Positions 65 to 17,670 of a DNA stretch of 24,000 nt are shown in pieces. The number at the start of each line of letters is the position of its first letter. Position 1 is the first letter of the stretch. The notes under the pieces are model-generated. The model was not told where the DNA came from and made no database searches. It worked only from the letters and a program-made list of their open reading frames with translations. The DNA is from Sinomonas atrocyanea (GTDB lineage: Bacteria > Actinomycetota > Actinomycetes > Actinomycetales > Micrococcaceae). The translations under genes were made by a program, and so were the position numbers. The DNA is taken from NCBI RefSeq assembly GCF_001577305.1, contig NZ_CP014518.1, forward strand, positions 135,365 to 159,364. Direction: 5' to 3'.

Positions 65-1132
65 ATGGGAACCACCACTCACCAGGCATCCTTCGGGGAG
101 CCCTCGGCATCCCGCGGGGACACGCAGGTCCAGAACACGGCGTCGCCCGCGACGCGCACCGCCAGGACCTCTCCCGCCGGCGTCCGATCAGGGGCCGCCC
201 GCGCCCTCCGGGCCCTCCCGGGCCCGCTGCTCGGGCTCGTCGCCGTCATGATCGTGTTCTCGATCCTCTCGCCCTACTTCCTCACGTGGCGCAACCTGTC
301 CAACATCATCAGCCAGAACGCCGACCTCGGCATCATGGCGGTCGGGGCCGCGCTGGTCATCCTCATCGGCGGGATCGACCTCTCCGTGGGCTCCAACCTC
401 GCGCTGTCCCTGATGGTCAGCGCGTGGCTGTTCCGCTCGGGGGGCCTGCCGTTCGGCCTGTGCGTCGTGATCGGGCTCGTGACCGGCGCGGCCGTGGGGC
501 TGGTCAATGGGATCCTCTCCACCTACGGGCGCATCCAGCCCTTCGTCGCGACGCTCGCCACCATGTCCGCCTGCGCGGGCCTGGCGCTCTACGTCACCAA
601 CGGCAACCCCATCAACGACTTCCCGGACTGGTACCTCGCCCTCACCAGCACCCCCGTCCTCGGCATCCCGCTCGAGGGGCTCATCATGGTCGCGATCTTC
701 GTGCTCGCCGCCTTCTGGCTCCGCTTCCGCCCCACCGGGCGGGCGCTGTACGCCATCGGAGGCAACGCCGAGGTGGCGCGCCTGTCGGGCCTGAACGTGA
801 CCAGGATCAAGATCGGCGTGTACATGATCGCCGGCCTCCTGGCCGCGGTGGCGGGCGTGATCGTCGGATCCCGGCTCGACTCCGCGCAGCCGACGGCGGG
901 CACGGCCGACCTCCTCAACGTCATCGCCGTGGTCGTGATCGGCGGAGCGAGCCTCTCCGGCGGCTCGGGCGGAATGCTCAACACCTTCATCGGCCTGCTC
1001 ATCATCGGGGTCCTCAACAACGGGATGTCGCTGCTCAATGTCTCCCCGAACCTCCAGCCCGTGGTCATCGGGGTCGCCATCATCGTCGCCGTCCTGACCG
1101 ACCGCGCCAGCCGAAGCCGCCAGGGCTCATGA
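65..1132 (+). CDS. ABC transporter permease, CUT2 (ribose/monosaccharide) type
   Basis: 355-aa ORF with many hydrophobic spans. RbsC/AraH-like motifs are present (GGIDLSVGS; RPTGRALYAIGGNAEVARLSGLNV; VVIGGASLSGGSGG). An ORF open from the window edge stops at 51-53, just upstream, so this is probably an internal gene of an operon that starts left of the window. Confidence 0.9.
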   Translation: MGTTTHQASFGEPSASRGDTQVQNTASPATRTARTSPAGVRSGAARALRALPGPLLGLVAVMIVFSILSPYFLTWRNLSNIISQNADLGIMAVGAALVILIGGIDLSVGSNLALSLMVSAWLFRSGGLPFGLCVVIGLVTGAAVGLVNGILSTYGRIQPFVATLATMSACAGLALYVTNGNPINDFPDWYLALTSTPVLGIPLEGLIMVAIFVLAAFWLRFRPTGRALYAIGGNAEVARLSGLNVTRIKIGVYMIAGLLAAVAGVIVGSRLDSAQPTAGTADLLNVIAVVVIGGASLSGGSGGMLNTFIGLLIIGVLNNGMSLLNVSPNLQPVVIGVAIIVAVLTDRASRSRQGS

Positions 1133-1162
1133 CGCCGGGCCGCGCGCAGAAGAGGAATCTCC

Positions 1163-2641
1163 ATGTCCACTGAGACGTACATCGTCGAACCGATCGCCGA
1201 GATGCTCGACGAGGCCGATCCGGGGCGGACGCTCGCCCCCTGCGGCATCGACCAGCTCATCATCGGCCCTGACGCGCTGAGCGCCGTGCCGGCCACCCTG
1301 GGCGAGCTCCTGGCCTCCGCGGCGGCGCCGCGGGACGGGGCTGCCCGGGCGCGCGTGGCGCTCCTCGTCGACAGGACCCCGATCCTGCGCGGCGAGCAGA
1401 ACGTCAAGGACGCCGTCGAGGCGCAGCTCGCCGACCAGTTCGACGTCACCCGCACGGTGCTCGACGACGGGCACCCTGAACTCCACGTGGTGGACCCGAT
1501 CCTCGACGAGGCGGCCGAGGCGGCCGCGGGCAAGGCCGCGGTGGTGGCCATCGGCGGGGGCACCATCAGCGACATCGCCAAGGTCGCCGTCCAGCGGGCA
1601 GGGGAGGCCGGAGAGCGGCCGGTCCTGCTCACGGTGCAGACTGCCGCCTCCGTGGACGGCTTCACGGACGACGTCTCCGTGGTCCTCCGCAACGGCGTCA
1701 AGCGCACGGTGCCCTCGGCATGGCCGGACGCGGTGGTCTCGGACACGCTCACCATCGCCGGCGCACCGGAGGCCATGAACCGCGCTGGCTTCGGCGAGAT
1801 GACCTCGATGCTCGTGGCGCCCGCGGACTGGCGCCTCGCCTCCCTCGTGGGGACCGACCCGACGTTCAAGCCCAGCGCGGTGACGCTGCTCGCCTCCGTC
1901 GGCAAGGACCTCGAGAGCTGGAGCGCGGGAGTGCGCGAAGCCCGCTCCGATGCGGTGGCCTCCCTGGCGCGCGCACTCGCCCTGCGCGGCATCGTCACCG
2001 GGGTGGCAGGGACCACGGCCGTGCTCTCCGGCGTCGAACACCTCATCAGCCACATGCTCGACCAGTACCGCGGCGGCCACGGGCTGCCGATCGGCCTCCA
2101 CGGCGCCCAGGTCGGGGCCGGCGCGGTCATCGCCGCGACCGCCTGGGAGATGCTCTTCGAGCGCCTGGAGCGTGCCTCGGACCGGCCGAGGATCGCCACG
2201 AAGGCGCTGGACCGGGGCCGCAGCCGGGAGCGTGTGCTGTCCGCCTTCGAACGGGTCGATCCTAGCCTGCAGGTCGCCGAGGAATGCTGGAAGGACTTCT
2301 CGGCCAAGCTCGACGCCGTGGAGCGGAACCTCCCTCGCATCACTGCTCTGCTGGGCGACTGGGCCGAGGCCCGGGACGAGCTCCGCGGCCTCGTCCGCCC
2401 CGCGGACGCCATCGCCTCGGCCCTCACCGAAGCGGGCGCACCTGCCGCCCTCTCCGATCTCGAACCGGCGGTGGAGCCCGAACTGGGCCGCTGGGCCGTC
2501 GAGAACTGCGCGCTGATGCGCAACCGGTTCACGGTCGTGGACCTGCTCACGCTCCTCGGATGGTGGGAGCCGCAGGATGTGGACGAGGTGCTGGAGCGGG
2601 CCGCGCGCGCCGGCGCGAAGGCGGAAGCAGGAGGGAAGTGA
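1163..2641 (+). CDS. sn-glycerol-1-phosphate dehydrogenase-like oxidoreductase (AraM/EgsA family, iron-ADH/DHQS-like superfamily)
   Basis: 492-aa ORF. Family motifs: glycine-rich nucleotide loop AIGGGTISDIAK, metal-ligand region QTAASVDGFTDD, SGVEHLISHMLD, C-terminal RNRFTVVDLL. AGAGGAA lies upstream of the ATG, 30 nt after the permease stop. It is longer than typical family members, so substrate assignment is uncertain. Confidence 0.75.
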   Translation: MSTETYIVEPIAEMLDEADPGRTLAPCGIDQLIIGPDALSAVPATLGELLASAAAPRDGAARARVALLVDRTPILRGEQNVKDAVEAQLADQFDVTRTVLDDGHPELHVVDPILDEAAEAAAGKAAVVAIGGGTISDIAKVAVQRAGEAGERPVLLTVQTAASVDGFTDDVSVVLRNGVKRTVPSAWPDAVVSDTLTIAGAPEAMNRAGFGEMTSMLVAPADWRLASLVGTDPTFKPSAVTLLASVGKDLESWSAGVREARSDAVASLARALALRGIVTGVAGTTAVLSGVEHLISHMLDQYRGGHGLPIGLHGAQVGAGAVIAATAWEMLFERLERASDRPRIATKALDRGRSRERVLSAFERVDPSLQVAEECWKDFSAKLDAVERNLPRITALLGDWAEARDELRGLVRPADAIASALTEAGAPAALSDLEPAVEPELGRWAVENCALMRNRFTVVDLLTLLGWWEPQDVDEVLERAARAGAKAEAGGK

Positions 2642-2645
2642 CACC

Positions 2646-4160
2646 ATGCAGCGGGACTACGTGATCGGCGTCGACTGTTCGACCACCGCCGCCAAGGCGG
2701 TCGTGTGGAACTCCCGCGGCGACGCCCTCGCCCAGGCGCGCTGCGCCTTCGGCCTGAGCCAGCCCCATCCGGGGTGGGGCGAGCAGAATGCAGAGGACTG
2801 GTGGGCGGCCTCGGTCGAGGCGATCCGGCGGGCCTCCCAGGCCGTCGACGTCTCGCGCATCGGCGCCGTGTGCATCACCCACCAGCGCGAGAGCTTCGTC
2901 TGCCTGGACGCCGAGGGCCTCCCCCTCAGGCCCGCGATGCTGTGGCTGGATACCCGGGCCACCAAGGAGGTCTCCGCGTTCGGGACGGAGGAGGTCCACC
3001 GGCTCACCGGCAAGCCCGCCAATCCGACGCCGGCCTGGTACAAGCTGCACTGGCTGGCCGCCAACGAGCCCGACACCGTCGCCCGGATCGGGAAGGTGGT
3101 CGACGTCCACGGCTTCCTCGTCCACCGCTTCACCGGGCAGTGGCTCACCTCCTGGGCCTCCGCCGACCCGCTCGGCCTCGTCGACATGACGACCTTCGAC
3201 TACGACCAGTCCCTCCTGGACGCCGTGGGCCTCGAGCGCGGCCAGCTCAGCGAGCTGCGCGCCCCGGGGAGCGTGCTGGGTCGTCTGACGGACGACGCCG
3301 CGCGGCAGCTCGGTCTTCCCCGCGACGTTGTCGTCGTGGCCGGCGCGGGGGACGGCCAGTGCGCCCAGCTCGGGTCCGGGGCCACGGTGGGCGGGCGGGC
3401 ATACCTCAACCTCGGCAGCGGCATCGTCTCCGGCACGTTCTCCGAGCACTACTCCTACGCCCAGGAATACCGGACGCTCTCGGCGGCCCAGCCGGGCGCG
3501 TACACGCTCGAGACCTTCATCGGCGGCGGCACCATCAACCTGACCTGGTTCGTCGAGAAGTTCTCCGGGATCACGCAGGGCGCGCTCGGCCTCGACCTCA
3601 CTCCCGAGCAGATCCTCGAGACCGCTGCGGCGAAGCTGCCCCCGGGCGCCGAGGGCCTGCTGGCGCTCCCGTACTGGACCGGGGCGCTCACGCCCTACTG
3701 GGACCACCACGCCCGGGGAGTCCTGGTCGGGCTGACCGGCATCCACGGCAAGGCCCACGTCTACCGCGCCCTCCTCGAGGGGCTCGCCTTCGAGCAGCGC
3801 CTCCTGACCACGGGGGCCGAGCAGGCCCTCGCGGAGCCGGTCGCCGAGATCATCGCCCTGGGCGGCGGGTCGCGGAGCCCGGTGTGGTGCCAGATCATCG
3901 CCGACGTCATGCAGCGCAGCGTCTCGGTGGTCCGGGAGCCGGAGAGCACCTGCCTGGGTGCGGGGATGCTGGCGGCCTCGGCCGTGGGCCTCCACGAGTC
4001 CGTCGCGGCCGCGGCCAAGGCCATGAGCGGGCTCGGTGTCTCCTATGAGCCGCGGCCGCAGCAGGCCGCGGTCTACGACCGCCTCTACGACGTCTACCGG
4101 GACATCTACCCGTCCAACCGGGCACTGTTCGCCCGCCTGGCAGAGGCGGTGCGGCCATGA
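2646..4160 (+). CDS. FGGY-family carbohydrate kinase (xylulokinase-like)
   Basis: The track ORF is 2577-4160. I place the start at ATG 2646 (MQRDYVIGVDCSTTAAKAVVW), preceded by GGAGGGAAG and 4 nt after the upstream stop. FGGY hallmarks: GVDCSTTAAK, ITHQRESFVCLD, VVAGAGDGQCAQLG, GGGSRSPVWCQIIADV. Confidence 0.85.
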   Translation: MQRDYVIGVDCSTTAAKAVVWNSRGDALAQARCAFGLSQPHPGWGEQNAEDWWAASVEAIRRASQAVDVSRIGAVCITHQRESFVCLDAEGLPLRPAMLWLDTRATKEVSAFGTEEVHRLTGKPANPTPAWYKLHWLAANEPDTVARIGKVVDVHGFLVHRFTGQWLTSWASADPLGLVDMTTFDYDQSLLDAVGLERGQLSELRAPGSVLGRLTDDAARQLGLPRDVVVVAGAGDGQCAQLGSGATVGGRAYLNLGSGIVSGTFSEHYSYAQEYRTLSAAQPGAYTLETFIGGGTINLTWFVEKFSGITQGALGLDLTPEQILETAAAKLPPGAEGLLALPYWTGALTPYWDHHARGVLVGLTGIHGKAHVYRALLEGLAFEQRLLTTGAEQALAEPVAEIIALGGGSRSPVWCQIIADVMQRSVSVVREPESTCLGAGMLAASAVGLHESVAAAAKAMSGLGVSYEPRPQQAAVYDRLYDVYRDIYPSNRALFARLAEAVRP

Positions 4161-5008
4161 GGGCGCCGGCTCCCGGGGCGCCGGGGGTGCCCGAGGCCAC
4201 GGACGTGAAGGCCTACGAGGGCTACCTCTTCGACCTCGACGGCACGATCTACCTCGGAGACGAGCTCCTGCCCGGAGCCGAGGACCTCATCCGGGGGCTG
4301 CGCAGCTCCGGCCGGGAGACCCTCTTCCTGTCGAACAATCCCACCAAGGACCCCCAGATGTACGCCGACAAGCTGACCAGGCTCGGCCTGGCCACGTCGC
4401 CGGAGCGGATCGTGAACCCCTTGGTCACGATCGTCGCGTGGCTGCGTCGGGAGGCGCCGGGCGCGGCGGTCTTCGTCATCGGCGAGGACCCCCTCGTGCG
4501 GGCCATCAGCGCGGCGGGCTTCCGCCTGACCGAGGACCCCCGGGAGATCGATGTGGTCGTGGCCAGCTACGACCGCGGCTTCGACTACCGCAAGCTGCAG
4601 ATCGCGTTCGATGCGCTGTGGCAGTACCGGCGGGCGCGGCTGGTCGCGACGAATCCCGACGCCTACTGCCCCATGCCGCAGGGCCGGGGCGAACCGGACG
4701 CCGCGGCGGTGATCGCCGCCATCGAGGCGAGCACGGGAGCCAAGTGCGAGGCGAACGTGGGCAAGCCCGCGGCCGTCATGCTCACGACGGCGCTCGAGGT
4801 GCTGGGTCTGCCCGGGGCGCAGTGCCTCATGGTGGGCGACCGGCTGCACACCGACATCGCCATGGCTGCCTCGGCCGGCATCGACTCCGCACTCGTCCTG
4901 ACGGGCGAGAGCACCGAGGAGATGGCGCGCCAGCTTCCGCGGGACCGCCAGCCCACCTACATTCTGCCGCGGATCGACGCGCTTCTGGCCCCGTTCGCCG
5001 GGGCCTAG
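4157..5008 (+). CDS. HAD-IIA family sugar-phosphate phosphatase (NagD/AraL-like)
   Basis: 283 aa. All four HAD motifs are present: LFDLDGTIY, FLSNNPTK, NVGKPAAV, VGDRLHTDI. ATGA start/stop overlap with the kinase (4157-4160). Confidence 0.85.
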   Translation: MRAPAPGAPGVPEATDVKAYEGYLFDLDGTIYLGDELLPGAEDLIRGLRSSGRETLFLSNNPTKDPQMYADKLTRLGLATSPERIVNPLVTIVAWLRREAPGAAVFVIGEDPLVRAISAAGFRLTEDPREIDVVVASYDRGFDYRKLQIAFDALWQYRRARLVATNPDAYCPMPQGRGEPDAAAVIAAIEASTGAKCEANVGKPAAVMLTTALEVLGLPGAQCLMVGDRLHTDIAMAASAGIDSALVLTGESTEEMARQLPRDRQPTYILPRIDALLAPFAGA

Positions 5009-5026
5009 GAAACCGGGTTGAAGAAG

Positions 5027-5087
5027 CCCTTGCTCCATGGCCGCACCCATCGGTAGAATTTCAATTCAGATCAGGAATATTTACTCA
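5027..5087 (+). promoter_or_regulatory. Predicted promoter plus two operator-like quasi-palindromes for the E1-lipoyl-aldolase-E2 operon
   Basis: This is the only AT-rich stretch in the 88-nt gap after the HAD gene. Elements: CCCTTGCTCC (-35 TTGCTC at 5030-5035), an 18-nt spacer, and TAGAAT (5054-5059). GAAT-TTCA-ATTC at 5056-5067 overlaps the -10. GAAT-ATTT-ACTC lies at 5075-5086, exactly 19 nt downstream. The same motif pair occurs at three other promoters in the window. Confidence 0.5.
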
Positions 5088-5096
5088 AAGCGAGGA

Positions 5097-6086
5097 ATGA
5101 TGGATCTCTCCCCAACCACCCAGCTGGAGATGCAGCGGCGCATGCTGCGGATCCGCCGCTTCGATGAGCGGGCCTCGCGCATGGTCAAGCGCGGGCAGAT
5201 CCCGGGAACCGTGCACACGAGCATCGGCCAGGAGGCCCAGGTCGTGGGCGCCTGCATGGCGCTCGGCGACGGCGACTACATGTCCGGGAACCACCGCAGC
5301 CACGGGCACCCCATCGGCAAGGGCTCGCCGCTGGGCCCGCTGATGGCCGAGCTCGTGGGCAAGGCCACCGGAGTGTGCCAGGGCAAGGGCGGGTCCCTGC
5401 ACCTTGCGGACTTCGCCGTCGGCAGCCTGGGGGAGTCGGGCATCGTCGGCTCCTCGATCCCGATCGCCACCGGTGCGGCCCTGTCGAGCAAGGTGCTCGG
5501 CAACGGCAAGGTCTCCCTGGCGTTCTTCGGGGACGGCGCCGCCAACCAGGGCTGCCTGTACGAGGCGATGAACCTCGCCGGCGTCTGGAAGCTGCCCGTC
5601 GTCTTCCTCTGCGAGAACAACCAGTACGCGCTCTCGACCCCCGCCCACACGGTCACCTCCGGCGTGATCGCCGAGCGTGCCGCCGGATTCGGCATGCCCG
5701 GCGTGCGCGTCGAGGACGGCCAGGACGTCCTCGCGGTCCACGAGGCCGTGGTCGAGGCGGTCGAGCGCGCCCGCCGCGGAGAGGGCCCGTCCCTCGTGGA
5801 GGTGGTGACCTACCGCTTCAACGAGCATTCCGAGGGCCTGCGCCTCGGCACCGACTACCGCGACGCGAGCGAGAAGGCGGCCTGGGTCGAGCGCGACCCG
5901 ATCGTCCTGTTCCGCCAGCGGCTCGAACGTGAAGGGGTGGCCTCCGCCGAGGAGCTGGACGCCCTCGAGGCCGAGGTCATGGCCGAGGTCGACGAGGCGG
6001 TGCGCTTCACCGACGAGAGCCCCTACCCGGACCCCAGCGTCGCCTTCAAAGACCTCTACACCGAACCGATCGGAGCGATCGCATGA
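5097..6086 (+). CDS. Thiamine-diphosphate-dependent dehydrogenase E1 alpha subunit (acetoin/pyruvate dehydrogenase E1 family, AcoA-like)
   Basis: The track ORF starts at 5037. I prefer ATG 5097 (or 5100), preceded by GCGAGGA, because 5037-5096 is promoter-like AT-rich sequence. Family motifs: HTSIGQEA, NHRSHGHPIGKG, TPP-binding FFGDGAANQG...CENNQYA. Confidence 0.9.
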   Translation: MMDLSPTTQLEMQRRMLRIRRFDERASRMVKRGQIPGTVHTSIGQEAQVVGACMALGDGDYMSGNHRSHGHPIGKGSPLGPLMAELVGKATGVCQGKGGSLHLADFAVGSLGESGIVGSSIPIATGAALSSKVLGNGKVSLAFFGDGAANQGCLYEAMNLAGVWKLPVVFLCENNQYALSTPAHTVTSGVIAERAAGFGMPGVRVEDGQDVLAVHEAVVEAVERARRGEGPSLVEVVTYRFNEHSEGLRLGTDYRDASEKAAWVERDPIVLFRQRLEREGVASAEELDALEAEVMAEVDEAVRFTDESPYPDPSVAFKDLYTEPIGAIA

Positions 6087-7129
6087 CTGTCATGAGCTAC
6101 CTCGGCGCCATCGGTGCCGCCCAGCGCGAGGCCATGGAGGCCGACGAGCGGGTGGTCATCATCGGCGAGGACGTCGAGGCCAACGTCTACGGCACCACGG
6201 GCGCCGGCAAGTCCCGCAAGGACAAGGGCGACTTCCTGGAGATGTTCGGGTCCAACCGGATCCGCAACACCCCGATCTCCGAGGAGGTCATCGTCGGTTC
6301 GGCCATCGGCGCCGCGATGACGGGCCTGCGCCCTATCGTCGACCTCTCGTACTCGAGCTTCCTGTACATGGCCATGGACCAGTTCGTGAACCAGGCGGCC
6401 AAGAACCGGTACATGTTCGGCGGCCAGGCCTCCATCCCCGTGGTCTTCCGCTCGGCGATGTTCTACGGGCTCAACACCGGAGCGCACCACTCGGACCGCC
6501 CGTACCCGATGTTCATGAACGTCCCCGGCCTGAAGATCATCGTCCCCGCCACCCCGTACGACGCCAAGGGGCTCCTGCGCACTGCGGTCGACACCGACGA
6601 CCCGGTGCTGACCTTCGAGGCCTGCATGCTCTGGGGCAGCAAGGGCGAGGTGCCCGAGGAGGAGTTCTGGATCCCCTTCGGCCAGGCCCGGGTGGCGCGC
6701 CAGGGCAGCGATGTCACGGTGGTCGCGATCTCCAGCGCCGTGCCCGAGGCCCTCGCGGCCGCAGAGGTCCTGGGAGAGGACGGCCTCTCCGTCGAGGTGA
6801 TCGACCCGCGCACCCTCGTGCCGTTCGACACCGAGGCGGTGATCCGGTCCGTGCAGCGCACCGGCCGGCTCGTGATCGCCGATCCCGCGCACCGCACGTG
6901 CTCCGCGGCGGCGGAGATCTCGGCGATCGTCGCGGAGGAGGCCTTCGAGTCGCTCAAGGCGCCGATCATGCGCGTCACGACGCCGGACACCCAGATCCCG
7001 TTCAGCCCGGCGCTCGAGAAGCAGCTGTACCCGAACCGGGCCAAGATCGAGGACGCCATCCGACGGGTCACCGGCCTGATGGCGAACACCTCCAACCCAG
7101 AACTGACGTCGCCCGCGCCGCGGATGTGA
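6083..7129 (+). CDS. E1 beta subunit (transketolase-like pyrimidine-binding and C-terminal domains, AcoB-like)
   Basis: 348 aa. Motifs: VIIGEDV, RNTPISEEVIVGSAIGAAMTGLRPI, KIIVPATPYDAKGLL. ATGA overlap with E1 alpha (6083-6086). Confidence 0.9.
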   Translation: MTVMSYLGAIGAAQREAMEADERVVIIGEDVEANVYGTTGAGKSRKDKGDFLEMFGSNRIRNTPISEEVIVGSAIGAAMTGLRPIVDLSYSSFLYMAMDQFVNQAAKNRYMFGGQASIPVVFRSAMFYGLNTGAHHSDRPYPMFMNVPGLKIIVPATPYDAKGLLRTAVDTDDPVLTFEACMLWGSKGEVPEEEFWIPFGQARVARQGSDVTVVAISSAVPEALAAAEVLGEDGLSVEVIDPRTLVPFDTEAVIRSVQRTGRLVIADPAHRTCSAAAEISAIVAEEAFESLKAPIMRVTTPDTQIPFSPALEKQLYPNRAKIEDAIRRVTGLMANTSNPELTSPAPRM

Positions 7130-7164
7130 CGGTCCTACAGAACACCGATTGAAGGAGAGAAGAC

Positions 7165-7407
7165 ATGGCTAGAGTCGAGGTCCTGCTGCCGCAGTGGGGT
7201 ATGGGCATGAGCGAGGGCACCGTTGCCACGTGGCTCAAGAACGTCGGGGACAGCGTCGCCGAAGACGAGCCGCTCGCCGAGGTCGAGGCGGAGAAGGTCG
7301 AGGAGACCCTCGAGTCGCCGGCCTCCGGCGTCCTGGCCGAGATCGTCGTCCCCGAGGGCGAGACGGTCGAGGTCCGCGCCGTGCTGGCCTACATCGAGAC
7401 GGCCTGA
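7165..7407 (+). CDS. Stand-alone lipoyl-attachment domain protein (E2 N-terminal lipoyl domain only)
   Basis: 80 aa. E2-type signature LPQWGMGMSEGTVATWLKNVGDSV...LAEVEAEKVEETLESPASGVLAEIVV. The predicted lipoyl-lysine is K44 (codon 7294-7296). Strong RBS GAAGGAGAG. The ORF stops immediately after the domain (IETA*). Confidence 0.8.
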   Translation: MARVEVLLPQWGMGMSEGTVATWLKNVGDSVAEDEPLAEVEAEKVEETLESPASGVLAEIVVPEGETVEVRAVLAYIETA

Positions 7408-7437
7408 CCGGGGCCGGGAGCAGGAAGGGACAGGACC

Positions 7438-8304
7438 ATGCCACAGGTTGACCCCCGCCAGATTGTCGACGAGGCCACCAGCGGCGGCTACGCCGTCGGA
7501 GCGTTCAACATGCACAACGAGGAGACCACCGAGGCCCTCGTCAGGGCCGCCGAGCGCGCCCAGTCTCCGGTCTTCCTCCAGGTCGGACGGGCGATCGTCC
7601 CGCACATGGGCCTCAAGAAGGCCTACGAGATGACGCGGCGGATCGCCGAGGAGTCGGACGCGGAGTACGTCATCCACCTGGACCACGGCCCGTGGGACGA
7701 GGTCTTCGAGGCGATCAAGCTCGGCTTCACGTCCATCATGTACGACGGCGCGCACCTTCCGTTCGAGGAGAACATCCGCACCACCCGCCGGGTGGTCGAG
7801 GTGGCCCACGCATTCGGCATCCCGGTGGAGGCCGAGCTGGGCAAGATCCCCAACGCCGACGAGCAGGTCGACTGGTCCTCGTACTACACCGACGTGGCCG
7901 AGGCCGAGCGGTTCGTTTCCGAGACGGGAGTGGACTTCCTCGCGATCTCCGTGGGCATCGTCCACGGCGTGCCCCTCGCCAAGCCGCAGCCGCTCGACAT
8001 CCAGCGCGTCAAGCAGATCGAGGCCGCGGTCGGCATCCCCCTGGTCCTGCACGGCGCCTCCGGGGTGCCCGACAACGAGATCCTCGCGGCGATGGCCGCC
8101 GGCGTGCACAAGTTCAACGCCGACACGGACCTCCGCCTCGCCTTCCGCTCGGGCATCGAGGATGTCTGGGCCCAGGGCGACCGCCAGCTCGAGGAGGCCA
8201 TGGCCGAAGGCCGCGAGCGCATGATCGAGGCAACCGTCCAGAAGATGAAGCTCTACGGCTGTGCCGGCAAGGCCCAGCATCGCCGGCAGCTGGTCCAGCA
8301 GTGA
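7438..8304 (+). CDS. Class II (metal-dependent) fructose/tagatose-bisphosphate aldolase family protein
   Basis: 288 aa. Motifs: YAVGAFNMHN, VIHLDHG, GFTSIMYDGA, VEAELG, LAISVGIVHG, LVLHGASG. RBS AGGAAGGGA. Confidence 0.9.
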   Translation: MPQVDPRQIVDEATSGGYAVGAFNMHNEETTEALVRAAERAQSPVFLQVGRAIVPHMGLKKAYEMTRRIAEESDAEYVIHLDHGPWDEVFEAIKLGFTSIMYDGAHLPFEENIRTTRRVVEVAHAFGIPVEAELGKIPNADEQVDWSSYYTDVAEAERFVSETGVDFLAISVGIVHGVPLAKPQPLDIQRVKQIEAAVGIPLVLHGASGVPDNEILAAMAAGVHKFNADTDLRLAFRSGIEDVWAQGDRQLEEAMAEGRERMIEATVQKMKLYGCAGKAQHRRQLVQQ

Positions 8305-8969
8305 CCACCGAGCAGCGCGAGGACAGCGTCACCACCCCCCTCAAGGGCATCCGGCGCACCGCCGCGCGGCGGATGACGGCCGCCTGGGGCGCGCCGGCGT
8401 TCCACCTCTCGACGAGCGTTGACATGGGTTCGGCGCTCTCCGTGAAGGAGCGCGTCCCGGGGGCCACGGTCACGGACGCCATCCTCGCGGCCTGCGCGGC
8501 GGCGCTCCTGGAGCATCCGGCGATCAACGCCCACTACGCCGACGAGGCCGTGACCGCGTTCGGGCAGGTCAACCTGGGCCTCGCCGTCGACACCCCGGCC
8601 GGACTCATGGTGCCGGTCATCAAGGATGCGGCCCGGCTCGACCTGACTGGCATCGCGGAGGCGAGGCGCGACCTCGCCCAGCGTGCCCGCCAGGGCAGCC
8701 TGACGATGGCGGACGTCTCGGACGGGACCTTCACGGTCTCCAACCTGGGCATGCTGGGCATCGACTACTTCGACGCCATCCTCAACGTGCCCCAGGTGGC
8801 GATCCTCGCCATCGGCACCACGCGCGAGGAGCAGGTCAGGGACGGCGACGGCGCCATCAGCTGGCGCCCTCGGGCCCGGATCACCCTGACGTGCGACCAC
8901 CGGGCCGTCGACGGCGCGACCGGGGCCCGGTTCCTCACCACGGTGAAGGACCGGCTGGAGACCGCGTAG
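8301..8969 (+). CDS. 2-oxoacid dehydrogenase E2 acyltransferase catalytic domain only (no lipoyl domain, no peripheral-subunit-binding domain)
   Basis: This is the last 222 codons of track ORF 7692-8969. The upstream part of that ORF is off-frame aldolase sequence. GTG 8301 overlaps the aldolase stop (GTGA). The protein starts about 10 residues before the conserved PLKGIRRTAARRM entry of the catalytic domain. It has GTFTVSNLG and the active-site motif CDHRAVDGA. Confidence 0.8.
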   Translation: MTTEQREDSVTTPLKGIRRTAARRMTAAWGAPAFHLSTSVDMGSALSVKERVPGATVTDAILAACAAALLEHPAINAHYADEAVTAFGQVNLGLAVDTPAGLMVPVIKDAARLDLTGIAEARRDLAQRARQGSLTMADVSDGTFTVSNLGMLGIDYFDAILNVPQVAILAIGTTREEQVRDGDGAISWRPRARITLTCDHRAVDGATGARFLTTVKDRLETA

Positions 8970-9000
8970 CGCAGCGCGGACTGAGGCCACTGCGGCAGAG

Positions 9001-9035
9001 AGGGCGCCCCCGGCCGGGAAGGCCGGGGGCGCCCT
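9001..9035. terminator. Bidirectional stem-loop between convergent genes
   Basis: AGGGCGCCCCCGGCC / GGGAA loop / GGCCGGGGGCGCCCT gives a perfect 15-bp GC-rich stem. It lies between the E2-core stop (8969) and the EIIC stop (9059). Confidence 0.7.
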
Positions 9036-9058
9036 GTGGCTTGGCGCGAGAGGGCACG

Positions 9059-10567
9059 TCAGCTGTTCGCGGGCACCTTCCGCGGCTCTGGGGCATCCTG
9101 CGAGGCCAGCCATTGGGCACGGTCCTCAGCTGGCAGCCAGCCCTTGTCGACACACCGGACTTTGAAGATCCAGGCGGACGCGACCAGAGCCAGGGCGAGT
9201 GCAATCATGCTCACCGGGGCGAGCGGCATGCCCGTCCGCGCGATCAGCCCGTCCACGGTGCCGAACCACCCGAAGTCGGCGTCGCCGAACGTGCTGTTGG
9301 CCATGCCGAGCGAGCCGAGCACGGTGAGCAGGAACGCGGGCAGGAGCGTGATCAGGACGCCGTTGAGGAAGCCGCCCACGATCGCGCCCCGCCGGCCTCC
9401 CGTGGCGTTGCCGAACACCCCGGCCCCTCCGCCGTCGAAGAAGTGCGGGACCATCCCGGGAAGGATGAGCGCCAGCCCGAACTGCGGGCCGAGCCAGACG
9501 GCGATCAGGGTCAGGGCCACGAGGCCGCCGGTGAAGGACGCGAGGAACCCGATGAGCGACGCGTTGGGTCCGAAGGGGAAGACGATCGGCACGTCCAGCG
9601 CGGGCTTGGCGCCCGGCACCACGCGCTGGGCGATCCCCTGGAACGCCGGAACGAGCTCACCGAGGATGATCCGGACGCCGTAGAGGATGATGCTGACGCC
9701 GATCCCGAACTGCAGCGCCTGGGCGAACGCCGCCATGACGTAGGCGCCGATGTCTGCGGAAGCGCCCGACGTGGAGTCCGCGAAGACCTTCAGGAGCGCG
9801 TCGTGCGGAATCGCGATGATGCCCCAGACGGCGAAGACCATGTAGAGCACCATCATCAGCACGGTGGTCGAGACCATGGAGTCCCTGAGGAAGCTGAGCC
9901 CATGGGAGAACTTCACTTCCTCGGCGGACCTCGAGCGCTTCCCGACCGCGGCCCCCGCGGCTCCGGCGATGATGTAGCCCAGGGTATTGAAGTGGCCGAT
10001 GGCCAGGTTGCCGTCCCGCGACCCGACAATGCGGTTCATGAACGGCTGGGCGAAGGTCGGCATGACGACCATGATGGCGCCCATGAGCACGGACCCGACT
10101 GCGATGACCCAGAAGTCCTGGTGGGCGCCGAATCCGACGGACAGGACGACGGCGAGGAGCGTCGACATGAAGACCATGTGGTGTCCCGTGAGGAAGACAT
10201 ACCTCAGGGGGGTGAACCTCGCCAGCAGCAGCATGATGATGAATCCGAAGACGATGATGTACGCCGACTGGGCTCCGAACTGGCTCGCTGCCTGGGCGGT
10301 GATCACCTCATTGGTCGGGACCACACCGTGGGCCCCGGTGTCCTTGAGGATGAGATGCCCGAAGGGCGACAGGGAGTTGATCACGACGGTGGCGCCGGCG
10401 CCGAGGATCAGGTAGCCCATCGCGGCCTTGAGGGCCCCGGCGACCACTTCCCCCGGTTTCTTCTTCATGGCGATCAGCCCTACGGCCGCCACGATCCCCA
10501 TCAGGTAGGCGGGGACGTTGAGAATCTGGACGCTGATGAAGTGCAGAATCGAAATGAACCACGACAT
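9059..10567 (-). CDS. PTS ascorbate-family EIIC permease (SgaT/UlaA-like)
   Basis: The track ORF is 9059-10585. The start is taken at ATG 10567 (MSWFISILHF), preceded by GGAGAGAGG. Polytopic membrane protein, collinear by eye with UlaA (LTGHHMVF, IGHFNT, GVRIILGELVPAFQGIAQRVVPGA, PGMVPHFF). Confidence 0.9.
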   Translation of the reverse strand: MSWFISILHFISVQILNVPAYLMGIVAAVGLIAMKKKPGEVVAGALKAAMGYLILGAGATVVINSLSPFGHLILKDTGAHGVVPTNEVITAQAASQFGAQSAYIIVFGFIIMLLLARFTPLRYVFLTGHHMVFMSTLLAVVLSVGFGAHQDFWVIAVGSVLMGAIMVVMPTFAQPFMNRIVGSRDGNLAIGHFNTLGYIIAGAAGAAVGKRSRSAEEVKFSHGLSFLRDSMVSTTVLMMVLYMVFAVWGIIAIPHDALLKVFADSTSGASADIGAYVMAAFAQALQFGIGVSIILYGVRIILGELVPAFQGIAQRVVPGAKPALDVPIVFPFGPNASLIGFLASFTGGLVALTLIAVWLGPQFGLALILPGMVPHFFDGGGAGVFGNATGGRRGAIVGGFLNGVLITLLPAFLLTVLGSLGMANSTFGDADFGWFGTVDGLIARTGMPLAPVSMIALALALVASAWIFKVRCVDKGWLPAEDRAQWLASQDAPEPRKVPANS

Positions 10568-10598
10568 TGTAGTACCTCTCTCCACGAAAGCCGTGAAC

Positions 10599-10853
10599 TC
10601 AGGCCCGGGGGAGATGGCCGGAGAGCGCGGACTCGATCTCCTGGGCGTCCATGAAGTTGTTGACCACGGCGACGGGCGCAGGGATGTCGGCCAGCTTGTC
10701 CGCCAGCTCGGCCGAGGTCAGCACCAGGTCGACCCCCTGCGCAGCGCCGCGGGCGGCACTGATGTCGGCCGTCGTCACCGTGCCGGGGACATTCAGCTTG
10801 CCGAGGGCGGACTCGGTATTCATCTTCAGCAGGATTGACGTGCCGATTCCCAG
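10599..10853 (-). pseudogene. PTS EIIB (SgaB/UlaB-like), 5'-truncated: lacks start codon and catalytic Cys
   Basis: Homology begins at LGIGTSILLKMNTESALGKL... and runs to PVAVVNNFMDAQEIESAL...*. The expected MKIxxVCG N-terminus is replaced by ...HDDVRR, which is simply the antisense of the inverted fragment at 10854 onward. No in-frame ATG/GTG/TTG occurs near the junction. The first internal ATG (10823) would give a 74-aa product without the phosphorylation site. Confidence 0.65.
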
Positions 10854-10943
10854 TCTGCGGACATCATCATGACCAACGCCGAGATGGCCCGGCTGCTCGG
10901 CGACCTTGCGAGCCCGGTCGCAGTGATCGCCAACTTCATGGAC
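10647..10943. repeat. Inverted repeat formed by the conserved parts of the two EIIB copies
   Basis: 10647-10676 and the reverse complement of 10914-10943 match at 25 of 30 positions (hand alignment). This includes a perfect 13-mer: GTCCATGAAGTTG at 10647-10659, and its reverse complement CAACTTCATGGAC at 10931-10943. Confidence 0.6.
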
Positions 10944-10991
10944 ACGGACGAGATCATGCGGGCGGTTCGGGCCGTCATGGAGAAGCCGTAG
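10854..10991 (+). pseudogene. 3' fragment of a second, inverted PTS EIIB paralogue
   Basis: My translation of the plus strand gives SADIIMTNAEMARLLGDLASPVAVIANFMDTDEIMRAVRAVMEKP*. It aligns with the C-terminal half of the minus-strand EIIB (about 19 of 43 residues identical by hand) and with the UlaB GADIIIAST... region. It has no N-terminal half, no RBS, and a stop codon 5 codons upstream (10836-10838). Confidence 0.6.
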
Positions 10992-11048
10992 ATCCGCTGC
11001 GCCGAGTGCCGTGGCGTGGGACCTCGCCTGCCCGCGGGACGTGCAGAA

Positions 11049-11101
11049 GGGCTCCCCGGGCATGAGGCCGAAAGTACTTCAGCCCCGTGCCCGGGGAGCC
11101 C
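11049..11101. terminator. Long stem-loop between the EIIB fragment and the pepD 3' end
   Basis: GGGCTCCCCGGGCA (11049-11062) pairs perfectly with TGCCCGGGGAGCCC (11088-11101). The 25-nt loop contains the palindrome AAGTACTT. It lies 57 nt downstream of the pepD stop. It has no clear U-tract. Confidence 0.4.
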
Positions 11102-11157
11102 TGCAGTGCGGCGCGGATGCTGGTGTGCCGCGGCCGAGCTGGACGAGCGGGTCGCCG

Positions 11158-12621
11158 TCAGTGGAGGCGGCTCACCACCTCGCGGATGAGGGGCCACACG
11201 CGCGCCACCGAGGTGAAGTTCACCGACTCCTTGGGGGAGTGGAGGTCGTGGAGCTCCGTGCCGATCGAGATGATGTCGAGGCCTGGCAGCTTCTGGCTGA
11301 ACATGCCCAGCTCGAGGCTGCACTGGGAGACGTGGACCTCGGGATCGGTGCCCATGACCTCCGAGTAGGCCTTCCGGGCGACGTCGAGCAGCTTCGAGTC
11401 CGGCCGGTAGGGGAACTCCGGCGCGTCGAGCCCGTACTGCTCGACCGACGCGCCGCCGCCCGCGAGGGCGACCAACGAGCGCACCCTGTCCAGGATCTCG
11501 TGCTTGCGCGAGGTGACGGCCGCCGTGATGGTCGACATGAGCCGTGCGCCGTCCGCGGTGGTGCGGACCGTCCCGAGGTTGTTCGAACTCTCCACGATGC
11601 CCGGCACCGTGAGGCTCCAGCTCAGGACGCCGTTCGGGATCAGCGCGGTGAGCCGCGCGAAGCGCGCCCCCGCGGCCGCCGAGAAGACGTCCTCCGGGCG
11701 CTCCGCCGAGTCGAGCTCGAGCCGGATGCCCGGATCGGCCTTGCGGTACTCGTTGAGCAGCGTGCGCTCGAGCTCGGAGACGGCGTCGGCCACGGCGCGG
11801 ACGTCCTCCGGCCGCAGCGACAGCACCACCTGGGCGTCCGCCGGGATGGCGTTGTTCTGCGCTCCGCCGTGGGGATCGCTGATCCTGACGTCGAACCGGT
11901 CCATCAGGGTCGTGAGCGCCCGCGCCAGGACGAGGACGGCGTTCGCACGCTCCAGGTGGATGTCGAATTCGCAGTGCCCGCCGGCCAGGCCGCGGACCTT
12001 GAGCAGACGCGTCTCGGTATGCGTGCCGGGCACCGGCTCCCACTCTGCGGGCACGTCGACGGTGAAGGTCACGTCGCCGCTGCAGCCGGCGAGGATCTCC
12101 TTGTCGGTGATCCAGTTGAAGTCGATCATCCGCTTCCCGGACAGCTTCGACGTGTCGAACTGGGCGGCTCCCACCTTCCCCTTCTCCTCCATGGCGGTCA
12201 GGACCGCCTCGAGGGGCGGGTGCGGGATGTCCTTCGAGTCGAGGAGCGCCAGGATGTAGGAGACGCCGATGCCGTTGTCGGCCCCGAGGGAGGTCCCGTT
12301 CGCGGTGACGAAGTCACCGTCGATGAGGAGCTCGATCGGATCCTGTTCGAAGTCGTGGGTGACGCCGTCCTCCTTCTCGCACACCATGTCCAGGTGCCCG
12401 TGGAGGATCAGCGGCGGTGCGCCCTCCAGGCCATGCTGGCCGGGCTTCTTCACGAGGACACAGTGCAGATCGTCCTGCGTCGCCTCGAGGCCGCGCTCGC
12501 GGGCGAAGTCGACGACCCAGTCGGCGACCTCCTTCTCGTTGCCGGAGCCGCGGGGGATGTTGGACAGGCTCTCGAAGAACGAGAACACCTCTTGGGGCTG
12601 GATCGATGTGAGGGTGGGCAT
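11158..12621 (-). CDS. pepD: Aminoacyl-histidine (Xaa-His) dipeptidase, M20C family
   Basis: This is the C-terminal 487 aa of track ORF 11158-13635. The start is at ATG 12621 (MPTLTSIQPQEVFSFFESLSNIPRGSGNEKE), preceded by AGAAGGAA. PepD hallmarks: HGHLDMV, LGADNGIG, EEKG, ELHDLHSPKE. Sequence upstream of 12621 in that ORF is off-frame permease sequence. Confidence 0.9.
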   Translation of the reverse strand: MPTLTSIQPQEVFSFFESLSNIPRGSGNEKEVADWVVDFARERGLEATQDDLHCVLVKKPGQHGLEGAPPLILHGHLDMVCEKEDGVTHDFEQDPIELLIDGDFVTANGTSLGADNGIGVSYILALLDSKDIPHPPLEAVLTAMEEKGKVGAAQFDTSKLSGKRMIDFNWITDKEILAGCSGDVTFTVDVPAEWEPVPGTHTETRLLKVRGLAGGHCEFDIHLERANAVLVLARALTTLMDRFDVRISDPHGGAQNNAIPADAQVVLSLRPEDVRAVADAVSELERTLLNEYRKADPGIRLELDSAERPEDVFSAAAGARFARLTALIPNGVLSWSLTVPGIVESSNNLGTVRTTADGARLMSTITAAVTSRKHEILDRVRSLVALAGGGASVEQYGLDAPEFPYRPDSKLLDVARKAYSEVMGTDPEVHVSQCSLELGMFSQKLPGLDIISIGTELHDLHSPKESVNFTSVARVWPLIREVVSRLH

Positions 12622-12644
12622 CGGGCTGTTCCTTCTCTGGCTGC

Positions 12645-12672
12645 CCGGGCCGCCTGCGAGGGGCGGCCCCGG
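12645..12672 (-). other. Intercistronic GC-rich hairpin between permease and pepD
   Basis: GGGCCGCC (12647-12654) pairs with GGCGGCCC (12662-12669). Two extra pairs form across a one-base bulge. No U-tract. The function (attenuator or mRNA stabiliser) is not established. Confidence 0.3.
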
Positions 12673-12707
12673 ATGGTGGTCGTGGAGGCTGGGGGAGCGA
12701 CCTGGGG

Positions 12708-13724
12708 CTACTTCACCACGCCTTGGCGCTTCCTGCCCATGGTCAGGGCAACGGCGACGATGATGACGAGCCCGTAGACGAGGCTCTGGGCCTGGGGGCT
12801 GATGCCCACCGAGGTCGCGCCGATGGGCACGAGGCCCACGGTGAGGGCGCCGAACACGATGTTGATCGGATTCGTGACACCGCCGGTGATGGCCGTGCCG
12901 CCCACGATCGCGGCGGTGATGCCCGGGAGCAGCAGGTCGCTGCCGAGCCCGAAGGAGGAGGCTGCGCCCGCCTGGGCGATGACGAGCACGCCGGCCAGCC
13001 CGGACAGCAGGCCCGAGAGGGCGAAGGCTGCCACCTTCAGCCAGCGTGTCCGCAGGCCGGAGAAGAGGGCGCCGCTCTCGTTCAGGCCCACGGCGGTCAT
13101 CCCCTGCCCGGACCGGGTGAACCGGAGCACGGCCCACAGGACGACGGCGCACACGACGCCGACCCAGAACGCCAGGGGCAGGCCCACGAGCGCGGTGCCG
13201 AACAGCGGGGCGAGCAGATCCGTGTTGGCGGTGGCGTAGACGGTCGTCGCGTGGCTGACCTCGAGCGATGCGGCCTGCACGATGCCGAGCGTGCCGAGCG
13301 TGAGGGCGAACGAGGGGATCTGGCCGAAGGCGATCAGGAACCCGTTCACGGCGCCGATCAGGGTCACCACGACGAGCGTGAGCAGGGGGGCCGCCGGGCC
13401 GAGGGGCTCCAGCGCCTGCGCGAGGATCATCGCCGAGAGCACCACGGTGGCGGCGTTGGAGAGGTCGATGGAGCCGACGTTGAGCACCATCGCCTGGCCC
13501 AGGGCCACGAGCAGGATGGGCGCTGCCTGCACCGTCAGGATGCCGAGGCCGCCGCCTGTGACGAAGGTCGGAGTCAGGACGGCCACCAGGGCGAACAGGG
13601 CGATGAAGACGGCGACCGGGCCCACGGTCTGCCACAGGCCGGCGGGGCGCAGGGTCACCCGCTTCTGCTTGCCCGAGGAGGGGGCGGAGAGCGGCTCCGG
13701 TCGGAGAACGGCGTTGTGTGTCAT
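12708..13724 (-). CDS. ABC transporter permease, CUT2 type (second permease)
   Basis: 338 aa, polytopic. Motifs: GSIDLSNAA, RFTRSGQGMTAVGLNESGALFSGL, IVGGTAITGG. Confidence 0.9.
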   Translation of the reverse strand: MTHNAVLRPEPLSAPSSGKQKRVTLRPAGLWQTVGPVAVFIALFALVAVLTPTFVTGGGLGILTVQAAPILLVALGQAMVLNVGSIDLSNAATVVLSAMILAQALEPLGPAAPLLTLVVVTLIGAVNGFLIAFGQIPSFALTLGTLGIVQAASLEVSHATTVYATANTDLLAPLFGTALVGLPLAFWVGVVCAVVLWAVLRFTRSGQGMTAVGLNESGALFSGLRTRWLKVAAFALSGLLSGLAGVLVIAQAGAASSFGLGSDLLLPGITAAIVGGTAITGGVTNPINIVFGALTVGLVPIGATSVGISPQAQSLVYGLVIIVAVALTMGRKRQGVVK

Positions 13725-13728
13725 GGGA

Positions 13729-16313: not shown

Positions 16314-16340
16314 TGCTCTCTCACCTGCTGTTGTTCGGGT

Positions 16341-16381: not shown

Positions 16382-16388
16382 GGGGCCG

Positions 16389-17516: not shown

Positions 17517-17562
17517 CAGTGACTCCTTCGTAAGAGATGGCCCGGGGTTCCTGCAGATCGAT

Positions 17563-17630: not shown

Positions 17631-17670
17631 ATCAAATTCCCGCGGGGCCAGAAGACGCCCGCGGCGCGGA

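Follow-up and report, generated by a model that had tools for sequence, protein, structure and literature searches.

Does a dehydrogenase of the 2-oxoacid type need its lipoyl arm to be tied to its acyltransferase? In the textbook description of 2-oxoacid dehydrogenases, tethering is central, with lipoyl arms swinging between active sites on an E2 scaffold. The question is raised by a 24,000-nt stretch of Sinomonas atrocyanea NZ_CP014518.1 (the window; positions are counted within it), in which genes for E1 alpha, E1 beta, a free lipoyl protein, a class II aldolase and an E2 catalytic core follow one another from 5097 to 8969 on the plus strand. With considerable confidence, we read this operon as encoding a deconstructed 2-oxoacid/acetoin dehydrogenase with a free carrier and a bare core. 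The putative carrier and core make the divided E2 a new variant on the 2-oxoacid dehydrogenase theme, and no described pathway matches it.

The five reading frames are tightly packed and of coding type, with a GC content at third codon positions of 0.92 to 0.96 in a window of about 70% GC. The ATG start of E1 beta overlaps the E1 alpha stop, the GTG start of the core at 8301 overlaps the TGA of the aldolase (cagcaGTGAcc), and the lipoyl and aldolase genes each follow a strong Shine-Dalgarno sequence, GAAGGAGAG in the case of the lipoyl gene. Pfam searches of the operon proteins gave the domains listed in Table 1, and no component reached the NCBIfam equivalog cutoffs for pyruvate dehydrogenase (PDH), fructose-bisphosphate aldolase (FBA) or known E2 proteins. 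The gene-order table places neither a gene for E3, the dihydrolipoyl dehydrogenase, nor a lipoylation gene within the 24-kb window, so that the host must supply both.

The 80-aa protein consists of one lipoyl domain and nothing else, matching positions 2 to 73 of the 73 in the PF00364 profile, and its size matches that of excised lipoyl domains solved by nuclear magnetic resonance (77 to 80 aa). Its residue K44 aligns with the lipoyl-lysines (DK) of M. tuberculosis DlaT and human E2p and has acidic flanks, as in E2-type lipoyl domains, rather than the Met-Lys-Met of biotinyl domains. Across 62 loci K44 is invariant (62/62), its EAEKV context is invariant or nearly so, and the length of the protein stays at 79 to 81 aa. 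The profile for the PSBD (peripheral-subunit-binding domain, PF02817), the E1/E3-binding part of a canonical E2, found no match in any of 31 lipoyl homologues even at E <= 1, and the glycine cleavage H profile (PF01597) matched a partial stretch only and stayed below its gathering score (19.4 bits versus a cutoff of 22.2). The closest 120 of more than 1,500 homologues in a public protein collection are equally short, and a protein of S. soli is 99% identical. The natural reading is that the free 80-aa protein would serve as a lipoyl carrier.

The E2 core is likewise a single catalytic domain, spanning profile positions 3 to 226 of the 232 in PF00198. It carries the Ser/His/Asp active site of canonical E2 proteins (SNLG, DHRxxDG), with S147, D199 and H200 invariant in 74 sequences and position 204 occupied by Asp in 73 and by Glu in one. 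No PSBD was detected in 41 core homologues even at E <= 1, nor in the other operon proteins; as a positive control, the same profile detected one (2.2e-15) in a related full-length sister E2. When compared with a 429-aa sister E2 from a Sinorhizobium plasmid, which by Pfam has lipoyl domain, PSBD and core, the carrier aligns only to residues 3 to 76 and the core only to residues 207 to 406, so that both linkers and the PSBD (residues 124 to 159) are missing. Where a canonical E2 is one chain, the 80-aa lipoyl and 222-aa core genes are here separated by a 288-aa aldolase gene, in more than 60 loci.

A further loss concerns assembly. Residue 220 of the core aligns with residue 640 of the 647 in human E2p and the chain stops two residues later, about 5 residues short of the human end. 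Residues 642 to 647 of human E2p form the terminal helix that plugs into a neighboring trimer and builds the 60-mer (PMC12995895). The predicted core is without this C-terminal helix, which joins E2 trimers into 24- or 60-mers, as it is without the PSBD, and is probably a free, bare trimer. An AlphaFold2 model of the core (predicted local distance difference test, pLDDT, 87) has the standard E2 core fold and ends in the last long helix, with template modeling scores of about 0.8 to E2p, E2b and E2o cores. Core lengths range from 214 to 236 aa across loci, and most C-termini in the family end at LES-x. Identity among cores is 53 to 73% across actinobacterial families and 97% to an S. atrocyanea protein. 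Clustering at 50% identity places the core family in one distinct group (390 bits), with the next matches, below 300 bits, mixing short and full-length E2 proteins; the closest 120 of more than 2,600 core homologues in the public protein collection are equally short.

The original prediction, made from the letters of the window, had placed the five reading frames at these same coordinates with the same domain content, and had described an E2 divided at domain boundaries, without linker or PSBD, with intact catalytic motifs and lipoyl-lysine context and with no E3 gene in the window. The profile searches bear this out, returning PF00364 alone for the lipoyl protein, PF00198 alone for the core and PF02817 for neither. 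Its description of the core as lacking lipoyl domain and PSBD was right as far as it went; the loss of the inter-trimer helix had gone unnoticed.

E1 alpha scores 323 bits against a PDH equivalog cutoff of 394, and E1 beta 299 against 321 and 290 against 454, so that all are missed, while the best family matches of E1 and of the core are pyruvate dehydrogenases. E1 alpha is 80 to 94% identical across actinobacterial families, and the AHHSDR motif of E1 beta is the counterpart of G. stearothermophilus beta-H128 (PMC2663715). In the E1 active site, the residues that could be mapped were the catalytic His and Glu and the thiamine-diphosphate motifs, all of them conserved universally, and these do not reveal the type of substrate. 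The aldolase has the zinc His, catalytic Asp and DHAP (dihydroxyacetone phosphate) phosphate residues of class II DHAP aldolases, matching those of YaSqiA (PMC10665668): D82, H83, E131, E133, H176, S208 and T230 show no variation, with H205 and D229 retained in 65 of 66 orthologues. It misses all FBA equivalog cutoffs, and its distal loop, QVGRA, resembles that of sulfofructose-phosphate aldolases (QVGQK) and not the S-x-G of FBA. Opposite the Arg of the FBA DPRK motif HMMER places a Glu, and a conserved Arg (GDRQ, R249) lies three residues off, across an alignment gap; R249 and R259 are both conserved and sit in the distal pocket. The closest solved structures are class II sulfofructose-phosphate aldolases. 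A sulfoquinovose pathway was nonetheless rejected, as the margin over ordinary FBAs is small, the clusters lack a sulfoquinovosidase and isomerase, and class II enzymes of this kind are reported absent from Actinobacteria.

A search of reference genomes and metagenome-assembled genomes (MAGs) with a core profile recovered 74 loci, for which a gene-order table was built by reference-based tblastn; 36 of them extend at least 18 kb and are referred to as long loci. The 74 loci represent Micrococcaceae, Nocardioidaceae, Microbacteriaceae, Kineosporiaceae, Streptomyces, Nakamurella, Nanopelagicales, Acidimicrobiales and other groups. Every one of the long loci has all five genes, and their order is that of the window in about 50 loci, with a variant in about 10 in which GlpD and a kinase stand between the lipoyl gene and the aldolase. 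In 59 of the 67 cases, the aldolase stop shares exactly 4 nt with the core start. Intactness and tight aldolase-core coupling had been put forward from the single window; both hold in the relatives, and with gene order conserved there and the same architecture recurring in more than 60 independent genomes and MAGs, the split is not chance, mis-assembly or decay.

The genes that a free carrier would need are often close by. A lipoylation gene, of the lipoyl ligase or LipA/LipB kind, is found in 25 of the 36 long clusters; in many loci a lipoyl ligase/transferase-like gene (PF21948) follows the core, and others have LipA and a LipB-like protein. In L052, L057, L058, L059, L065 and L067, several of them Microbacteriaceae, the gene directly after the core encodes a true dihydrolipoyl dehydrogenase, which scores 509 bits where the cutoff is 409; such an E3 in some clusters argues for a normal oxidative cycle. 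Both findings reinforce the earlier reading of the 80-aa protein as a lipoyl carrier.

Among Actinomycetota of soil and fresh water the island is abundant, and it occurs on alphaproteobacterial plasmids as well. Both a Rubrobacter plasmid and a plasmid of Shinella (Alphaproteobacteria), the latter with an E1 alpha of 76% identity, carry the entire split cluster. The island is horizontally mobile, across phyla, and the arrangement is not restricted to Actinobacteria. On the Shinella plasmid (L079), a gene for a glutathione-independent formaldehyde dehydrogenase follows beyond the cluster, after a transposase, from 28915 onward; this is possibly chance, possibly a hint of formaldehyde production.

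More distant relatives help to place the split. About 160 plasmids of the Rhizobium group (Rhizobium, Sinorhizobium, Agrobacterium) carry a sister system, with E1 alpha 47 to 49% identical, that comprises SorC, a DXR-II-like oxidoreductase, a full-length E2, LpdA, LipA, a GlpD-like protein, a Zn-dehydrogenase, sugar kinases and transporters of the ABC (ATP-binding cassette) or sorbitol-type phosphotransferase system (PTS) kind. In two of them (L083, 8586-13239; L084, 8607-13254) the DXR-II-like gene (PF21135) stands directly before E1 alpha, and E2, LpdA and LipA follow, by polyol transport genes. As these sister clusters retain a full-length E2, the split is a derived state within a wider E1/E2 clade tied to sugar-alcohol phosphates. 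The DXR-II-like gene hints at a 1-deoxy-ketose or branched polyol phosphate as substrate for the E1 clade. No DXR/DRL gene was found in any actinobacterial locus, the 2013 paper on the family describes no gene context, and we treat the lead towards 1-deoxyxylulose phosphate and methylerythritol phosphate as a hypothesis only. Salinibacterium and Cryobacterium have a second split system, which is diverged (E1 identity about 43%). It retains FGGY kinase, GlpD, aldolase, E1, carrier, core, E3, SorC and ABC transporter, a gene set that would define the minimal one, although rearranged: in L039 and L071 (about 600-10700), GlpD, aldolase, E1 alpha, E1 beta, lipoyl gene and FGGY lie on one strand and E3, core, ABC and FGGY on the other. 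On a Sphingobium plasmid (L081, 10001-14268), E1 alpha and E1 beta stand with an M24 peptidase, a free lipoyl protein of 79 aa and a pyrroloquinoline quinone dehydrogenase, with no E2 core nearby, and free carriers may be more widespread.

The operon itself is one unit of a larger one. An alignment of the E1 alpha leaders of 52 loci gave a conserved palindrome, TGAATA-nn-TATTCA, which is kept upstream of E1 alpha in about 50. In the window the AT-rich leader of the E1 operon has two copies (5056-5067 and 5075-5086) of the palindromic operator, GAATA-NN-TATTC, which is found again at 17563-17574 (start of the transporter operon), 20035-20046 (BKACE) and 21257-21268 (the divergent gap between SorC and GlpD); six sites occur against 0.66 expected. 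Of 75 operator sites in the 74 loci, 70 are promoter-proximal to the genes for E1 alpha, the sugar-binding protein, SorC, GlpD, the epoxide hydrolase, ADH2 or BKACE. The common operator at these promoters suggests that the operons form one regulon, and the motif is probably the binding site of the SorC-type regulator. A consensus scan for sigma-70 promoters and terminators and an Rfam search returned nothing, and a default repeat finder reported no inverted repeat in the leader, the operator coming to light only when the loci were aligned. A promoter at 5054 had been proposed at the start; the AT-rich element near that position holds the pair of conserved operator copies. The extent given to the operon, 5097-8969, likewise stands for its five genes, which now appear as one operon of a co-regulated island from about 1163 to 24000 (Table 1).

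Table 1. Genes of the E1 operon and of the surrounding island, with positions in the window
Feature	Position	Strand	Evidence
Fe-ADH_2, glycerol-1-phosphate-dehydrogenase-like, 492 aa (feeder module A)	1163-2641	+	Pfam, NCBIfam
FGGY kinase, XylB-like (feeder module A)	2646-4160	+	Pfam, NCBIfam
HAD-IIA phosphatase (feeder module A)	4157-5008	+	Pfam, NCBIfam
E1 alpha, thiamine-diphosphate-dependent dehydrogenase subunit	5097-6086	+	E1_dh PF00676, E = 1.9e-82; GDG-X26-NN motif
E1 beta	6083-7129	+	Transket_pyr PF02779 and Transketolase_C PF02780; catalytic His kept
Free lipoyl carrier protein (predicted), 80 aa	7165-7407	+	Biotin_lipoyl PF00364 only, E = 3.6e-20; K44 in EAEKVEE
Class II metal-/DHAP-dependent aldolase, 288 aa	7438-8304	+	F_bP_aldolase PF01116, E = 3.5e-86
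E2 catalytic core only, 222 aa	8301-8969	+	2-oxoacid_dh PF00198 only, E = 5.9e-68
PTS EIIC, ascorbate/galactitol type	9059-10585	-	
PTS EIIB	10599 to about 10900	-	
M20 PepD-like dipeptidase	11158-12642	-	Pfam, NCBIfam
Sugar ABC permease	12708-13724	-	Pfam, NCBIfam
Sugar ABC ATPase	about 13729-15300	-	Pfam, NCBIfam
Sugar ABC permease	15282-16313	-	Pfam, NCBIfam
Sugar-binding protein	16389-17627	-	Pfam, NCBIfam
Epoxide hydrolase	17725-18969	-	Pfam, NCBIfam
BKACE (beta-keto-acid cleavage enzyme)	19042-20067	-	Pfam, NCBIfam
SorC-family sugar-binding transcriptional regulator	20132-21247	-	PF04198, E = 8e-54
GlpD-like FAD dehydrogenase (feeder module B)	21299-22939	+	NCBIfam GlpD, 370.7 against a cutoff of 360
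GlpK-subfamily FGGY kinase (feeder module B)	22936-24000, cut by window end	+	NCBIfam

Upstream and downstream of the E1 operon lie two modules that could feed it. The Fe-ADH_2 of module A is about 100 aa longer than the glycerol-1-phosphate dehydrogenases that it resembles, and its best PDB matches cover residues 118 to 354 only; the kinase of this module scores best as XylB-like and second best as an FGGY-type gluconokinase. In module B, the GlpD-like protein is 36% identical to E. coli GlpD, and the kinase, 42% identical to E. coli GlpK, passes the cutoff for the subfamily though not that for the equivalog, with Val at the position of pocket residue F270. These diverged GlpK- and GlpD-like features suggest a substrate that would be glycerol-like but larger. 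At least one feeder module is present in all 36 long loci, ADH2 and HAD in 32, SorC in 27 and the GlpD-like gene in 23. The transport and hydrolase operon or operons span 11158-20067 on the minus strand, with identities backed also by matches to solved structures, and the transporter is of the CUT2 sugar ABC type.

Several other features of the island were considered in their own right. The PTS genes lie in an insertion (9036-11150) specific to this strain, S. atrocyanea DS1015 having 490 bp instead, and PTS genes occur in none of the 36 long loci, so that ascorbate or galactitol was rejected as a substrate clue. An analogy to the autoinducer-2 (lsr) system, prompted by SorC, FGGY and CUT2 components, was also rejected, as the kinase is XylB-like rather than LsrK-like and no LsrF or LsrG is present. 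The epoxide hydrolase, a true homologue and of microsomal type, is 80 to 90% identical across actinobacterial families, above the level of the E2 core; among solved structures, the enediyne-cluster hydrolases 5f4z and 4i19 come closest to it. The PepD-like M20 protein passes the beta-Ala-His dipeptidase subfamily cutoff and is always last in the sugar ABC operon. Neither this dipeptidase nor the co-regulated BKACE fits the pathway proposed below.

How might the parts work together? Every predicted catalytic part, whether for acyl formation with thiamine, acylation of the lipoyl group, acyl transfer or aldol chemistry with DHAP, is intact and conserved, and the parts are genetically coupled and co-regulated. 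What we infer is the direction of the aldolase (cleavage or aldehyde trapping), the trimeric state of the core, diffusion of the carrier, and the identity of the E1 substrate (a hydroxy-ketone, an aldehyde or a 2-oxo acid) and of the acyl group (acetyl, glycolyl or formyl). The explanation that we favor overall, with moderate confidence, is an untethered, lipoate-dependent C-C cleavage within a polyol or sugar catabolic island. An E1 of the heterotetramer type would form an acyl group and load it reductively onto K44 of the free carrier, the minimal E2 core, probably a bare trimer, would move it from the carrier to coenzyme A (CoA), and E3, cluster-encoded in some genomes and host-supplied here, would reoxidize the carrier. 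Since nothing in the sequences can tether the parts, the carrier would diffuse between E1, core and E3, shuttling among three unlinked enzymes in the manner of an H protein and not swinging on a tether.

The order of the pathway around this cycle is put forward only tentatively. A small polyol would be imported by the sugar ABC transporter and phosphorylated by an FGGY kinase. Oxidation of the phosphorylated polyol next to the phosphate, by the GlpD-like or the glycerol-1-phosphate-dehydrogenase-like enzyme, would give a ketose 1-phosphate, which the class II aldolase, produced in fixed proportion to the core, would split into DHAP and a small carbonyl compound, an alpha-hydroxy-ketone or aldehyde, which E1, carrier, core and E3 would convert to acyl-CoA. 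In one attractive version, branched or C4-C5 polyols (2-C-methylerythritol, other 2-methyltetrols, erythritol, threitol) would give a 1-phospho-2-ketose, from which the aldolase would release DHAP and hydroxyacetone or glycolaldehyde, to be cleaved or oxidized via E1 to acetyl- or glycolyl-CoA. Such a version would fit the DXR-II-like enzyme of the sister E1 operons, the co-regulated epoxide hydrolase, and the presence of two dehydrogenases related to enzymes with opposite stereochemistry, for glycerol 3-phosphate and glycerol 1-phosphate respectively. In a more daring variant, E1 would act on the ketose 1-phosphate itself, with the enamine expelling phosphate to leave acetyl-thiamine diphosphate, a phosphoketolase-like, redox-neutral route to acetyl-CoA.

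A number of observations weigh against this explanation. Five of the six residues with which E. coli GlpK binds glycerol are retained in the GlpK-like kinase, and the GlpD-like protein is at the GlpD cutoff, so that these feeders might simply make DHAP from glycerol, with the aldolase then condensing. To our knowledge, an aldehyde is not a precedented E1 substrate. In two loci (L036 and L047) the lipoyl gene is followed directly by the core, without the aldolase. Some Microbacteriaceae cores retain a short hydrophobic tail, PLGV or PLVA, that might still mediate contacts between trimers. Finally, the AlphaFold2 model of the carrier (pLDDT 49) gives no usable structure.

The first of these points leads to an alternative in which the aldolase runs in the condensing direction. 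Here E1 would cleave an imported alpha-hydroxy-ketone, erythrulose- or acetoin-like, into an acyl-lipoyl group and a toxic aldehyde, and the aldehyde would be trapped on DHAP made by the GlpK/GlpD-like and Fe-ADH modules, after which the HAD phosphatase and XylB-like kinase would shift the phosphate from C1 to the far end and so lead the product into the pentose phosphate pathway. This would account for a phosphatase and kinase pair that is otherwise hard to explain, it agrees with the homology of the feeders to enzymes leading from glycerol 3- or 1-phosphate to DHAP and with their retained substrate-binding residues, and both the tight coupling of aldolase to core, which fits aldehyde capture, and the presence of two separate ABC systems are in keeping with it. 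We nevertheless hold it to be unlikely. The cluster-specific GlpK and GlpD paralogues fall below or just at their equivalog cutoffs, which points to a substrate other than glycerol, a GlpD-like gene is missing from 13 of the 36 long loci, the phosphatase and XylB-like kinase are absent from several minimal ones, and the building of a larger sugar during catabolism would be unusual.

Rather improbable, in our judgment, is that the system is a true 2-oxoacid dehydrogenase, in which the aldolase would free DHAP and either glyoxylate or tartronate semialdehyde (the latter going to hydroxypyruvate) from a phosphorylated keto sugar acid, and E1, carrier, core and E3 would yield formyl- or glycolyl-CoA. 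The transporter is of the CUT2 neutral-sugar type, the clusters contain no sugar-acid dehydratase or isomerase, and glyoxylate and tartronate semialdehyde already have cheap standard routes. These weigh more with us than the PDH-like best matches of E1 and core, the second-best match of the module A kinase to gluconokinases, or the aldolase residues R249 and R259, which could bind an anionic group, even though IolJ is a known example of a class II aldolase with an acid semialdehyde among its products.

An ordinary acetoin or pyruvate dehydrogenase, forming a normal complex from a split E2 gene with the aldolase as a passenger, has only a slim chance of being correct. All components do belong to the PDH and acetoin dehydrogenase families, and the two loci without an aldolase between the halves would be expected if it were a passenger, but the operon lacks the PSBD and linker, the inter-trimer helix is missing, and E1 alpha and beta miss the PDH cutoffs. 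The aldolase, moreover, is in every long locus and shares its 4-nt overlap with the core in 59, and the surroundings are those of polyol use under a shared operator, with no acetoin or butanediol genes in the clusters. That the split is an artefact of assembly or frameshift, or that E2 is decaying as a pseudogene, is already refuted by conservation and merits practically no credence, since nothing was found in its support, the same split and lengths recur in independent assemblies from several orders and two phyla with invariant catalytic residues and a complete aldolase gene between the halves, and the core frame upstream of 8301 holds only Arg/Pro/Gly-rich, out-of-frame sequence.

With untethered C-C cleavage as the preferred explanation, the system can be set beside those already known. 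With PDH, other 2-oxoacid dehydrogenases and acetoin dehydrogenases it shares a thiamine-diphosphate E1, a lipoyl-lysine, a Ser/His/Asp acyltransferase resembling chloramphenicol acetyltransferase (CAT) and reoxidation by E3, presumably with the same chemistry. It differs in having E2 as two chains without linkers, PSBD or inter-trimer helix, an aldolase between them and a polyol context. Measured against the AcoABCL system in particular, the E1 subunits are of the right kind, but there is no fused AcoC, and the neighbors are polyol kinases, dehydrogenases and a sugar ABC transporter. The glycine cleavage H protein offers an analogy to the carrier, as a small, free lipoylated protein that visits separate enzymes, a part that the carrier would play here; unlike the H protein, the carrier has an E2-type lipoyl domain, and in place of the P and T proteins its partners would be E1 and an E2 core. 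The predicted system would work as a cross between a PDH or acetoin dehydrogenase and an H-protein shuttle, and is a member of neither as defined.

For single features there are partial precedents in OdhA and in the trimeric E2p of C. glutamicum. OdhA has an E2-like domain without a lipoyl domain of its own and uses the lipoyl domains of another protein (PMC10415282), while C. glutamicum E2p is a bare trimer that forms no 24- or 60-mer (PMC12995895). In OdhA/Kgd, however, the acyltransferase is fused to E1o and borrows the tethered lipoyl domains of E2p, whereas here a free core has a dedicated free carrier, and the C. glutamicum E2p still has lipoyl domains and a PSBD. The rhizobial sister clusters are alike in SorC, GlpD-like protein, Zn-dehydrogenase, sugar kinases and transporters, LpdA and LipA, and unlike in their 429-aa full-length E2, the DXR-II-like gene before E1 alpha and the absence of an aldolase.

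Two further systems resemble one end of the island each. In quinocarcin and naphthyridinomycin biosynthesis, a two-component transketolase and an E2-like lipoyl protein, reportedly described by Peng et al. in PNAS in 2012, are said to let the lipoyl group accept a C2 unit from a ketose phosphate; that system is by these accounts of the transketolase type, is biosynthetic, and passes the C2 unit to an acyl carrier protein. In the erythritol catabolon of Brucella and rhizobia (EryA/EryB/EryD), FGGY kinase and GlpD-like dehydrogenase come together with a SorC-type regulator and a CUT2 transporter. The front end here is the same, but the back end consists of the aldolase with E1, carrier and core, and no isomerases of the EryC, EryH or EryI type lie within 10 kb, nor any further conserved families in the 74 loci. 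No paper found in full-text literature searches describes this cluster or the pairing of a free lipoyl carrier with a PSBD-less core, in agreement with the original prediction, which had not recognized the arrangement from described pathways; in databases the carrier is named "lipoyl domain-containing protein" and the core "2-oxo acid dehydrogenase subunit E2".

It might be, although we would not call it probable, that this is the first natural, fully untethered system of the 2-oxoacid dehydrogenase type, placed in an undescribed sugar-alcohol pathway that leads from a ketose 1-phosphate through DHAP and a carbonyl compound to acyl-CoA. If true, the natural loss of linkers, E1/E3-binding domain and scaffold helix would demonstrate that a diffusible carrier can support the chemistry. 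The system would also give a minimal, four-part soluble model for lipoyl-domain recognition and offer simple parts for the engineering of acyl-CoA-forming modules. For the bacteria that carry the island, the system would mark an undescribed route of polyol catabolism to DHAP and acyl-CoA, and the conserved operator, together with the SorC regulator, would provide a direct handle on the inducer and hence on the substrate.

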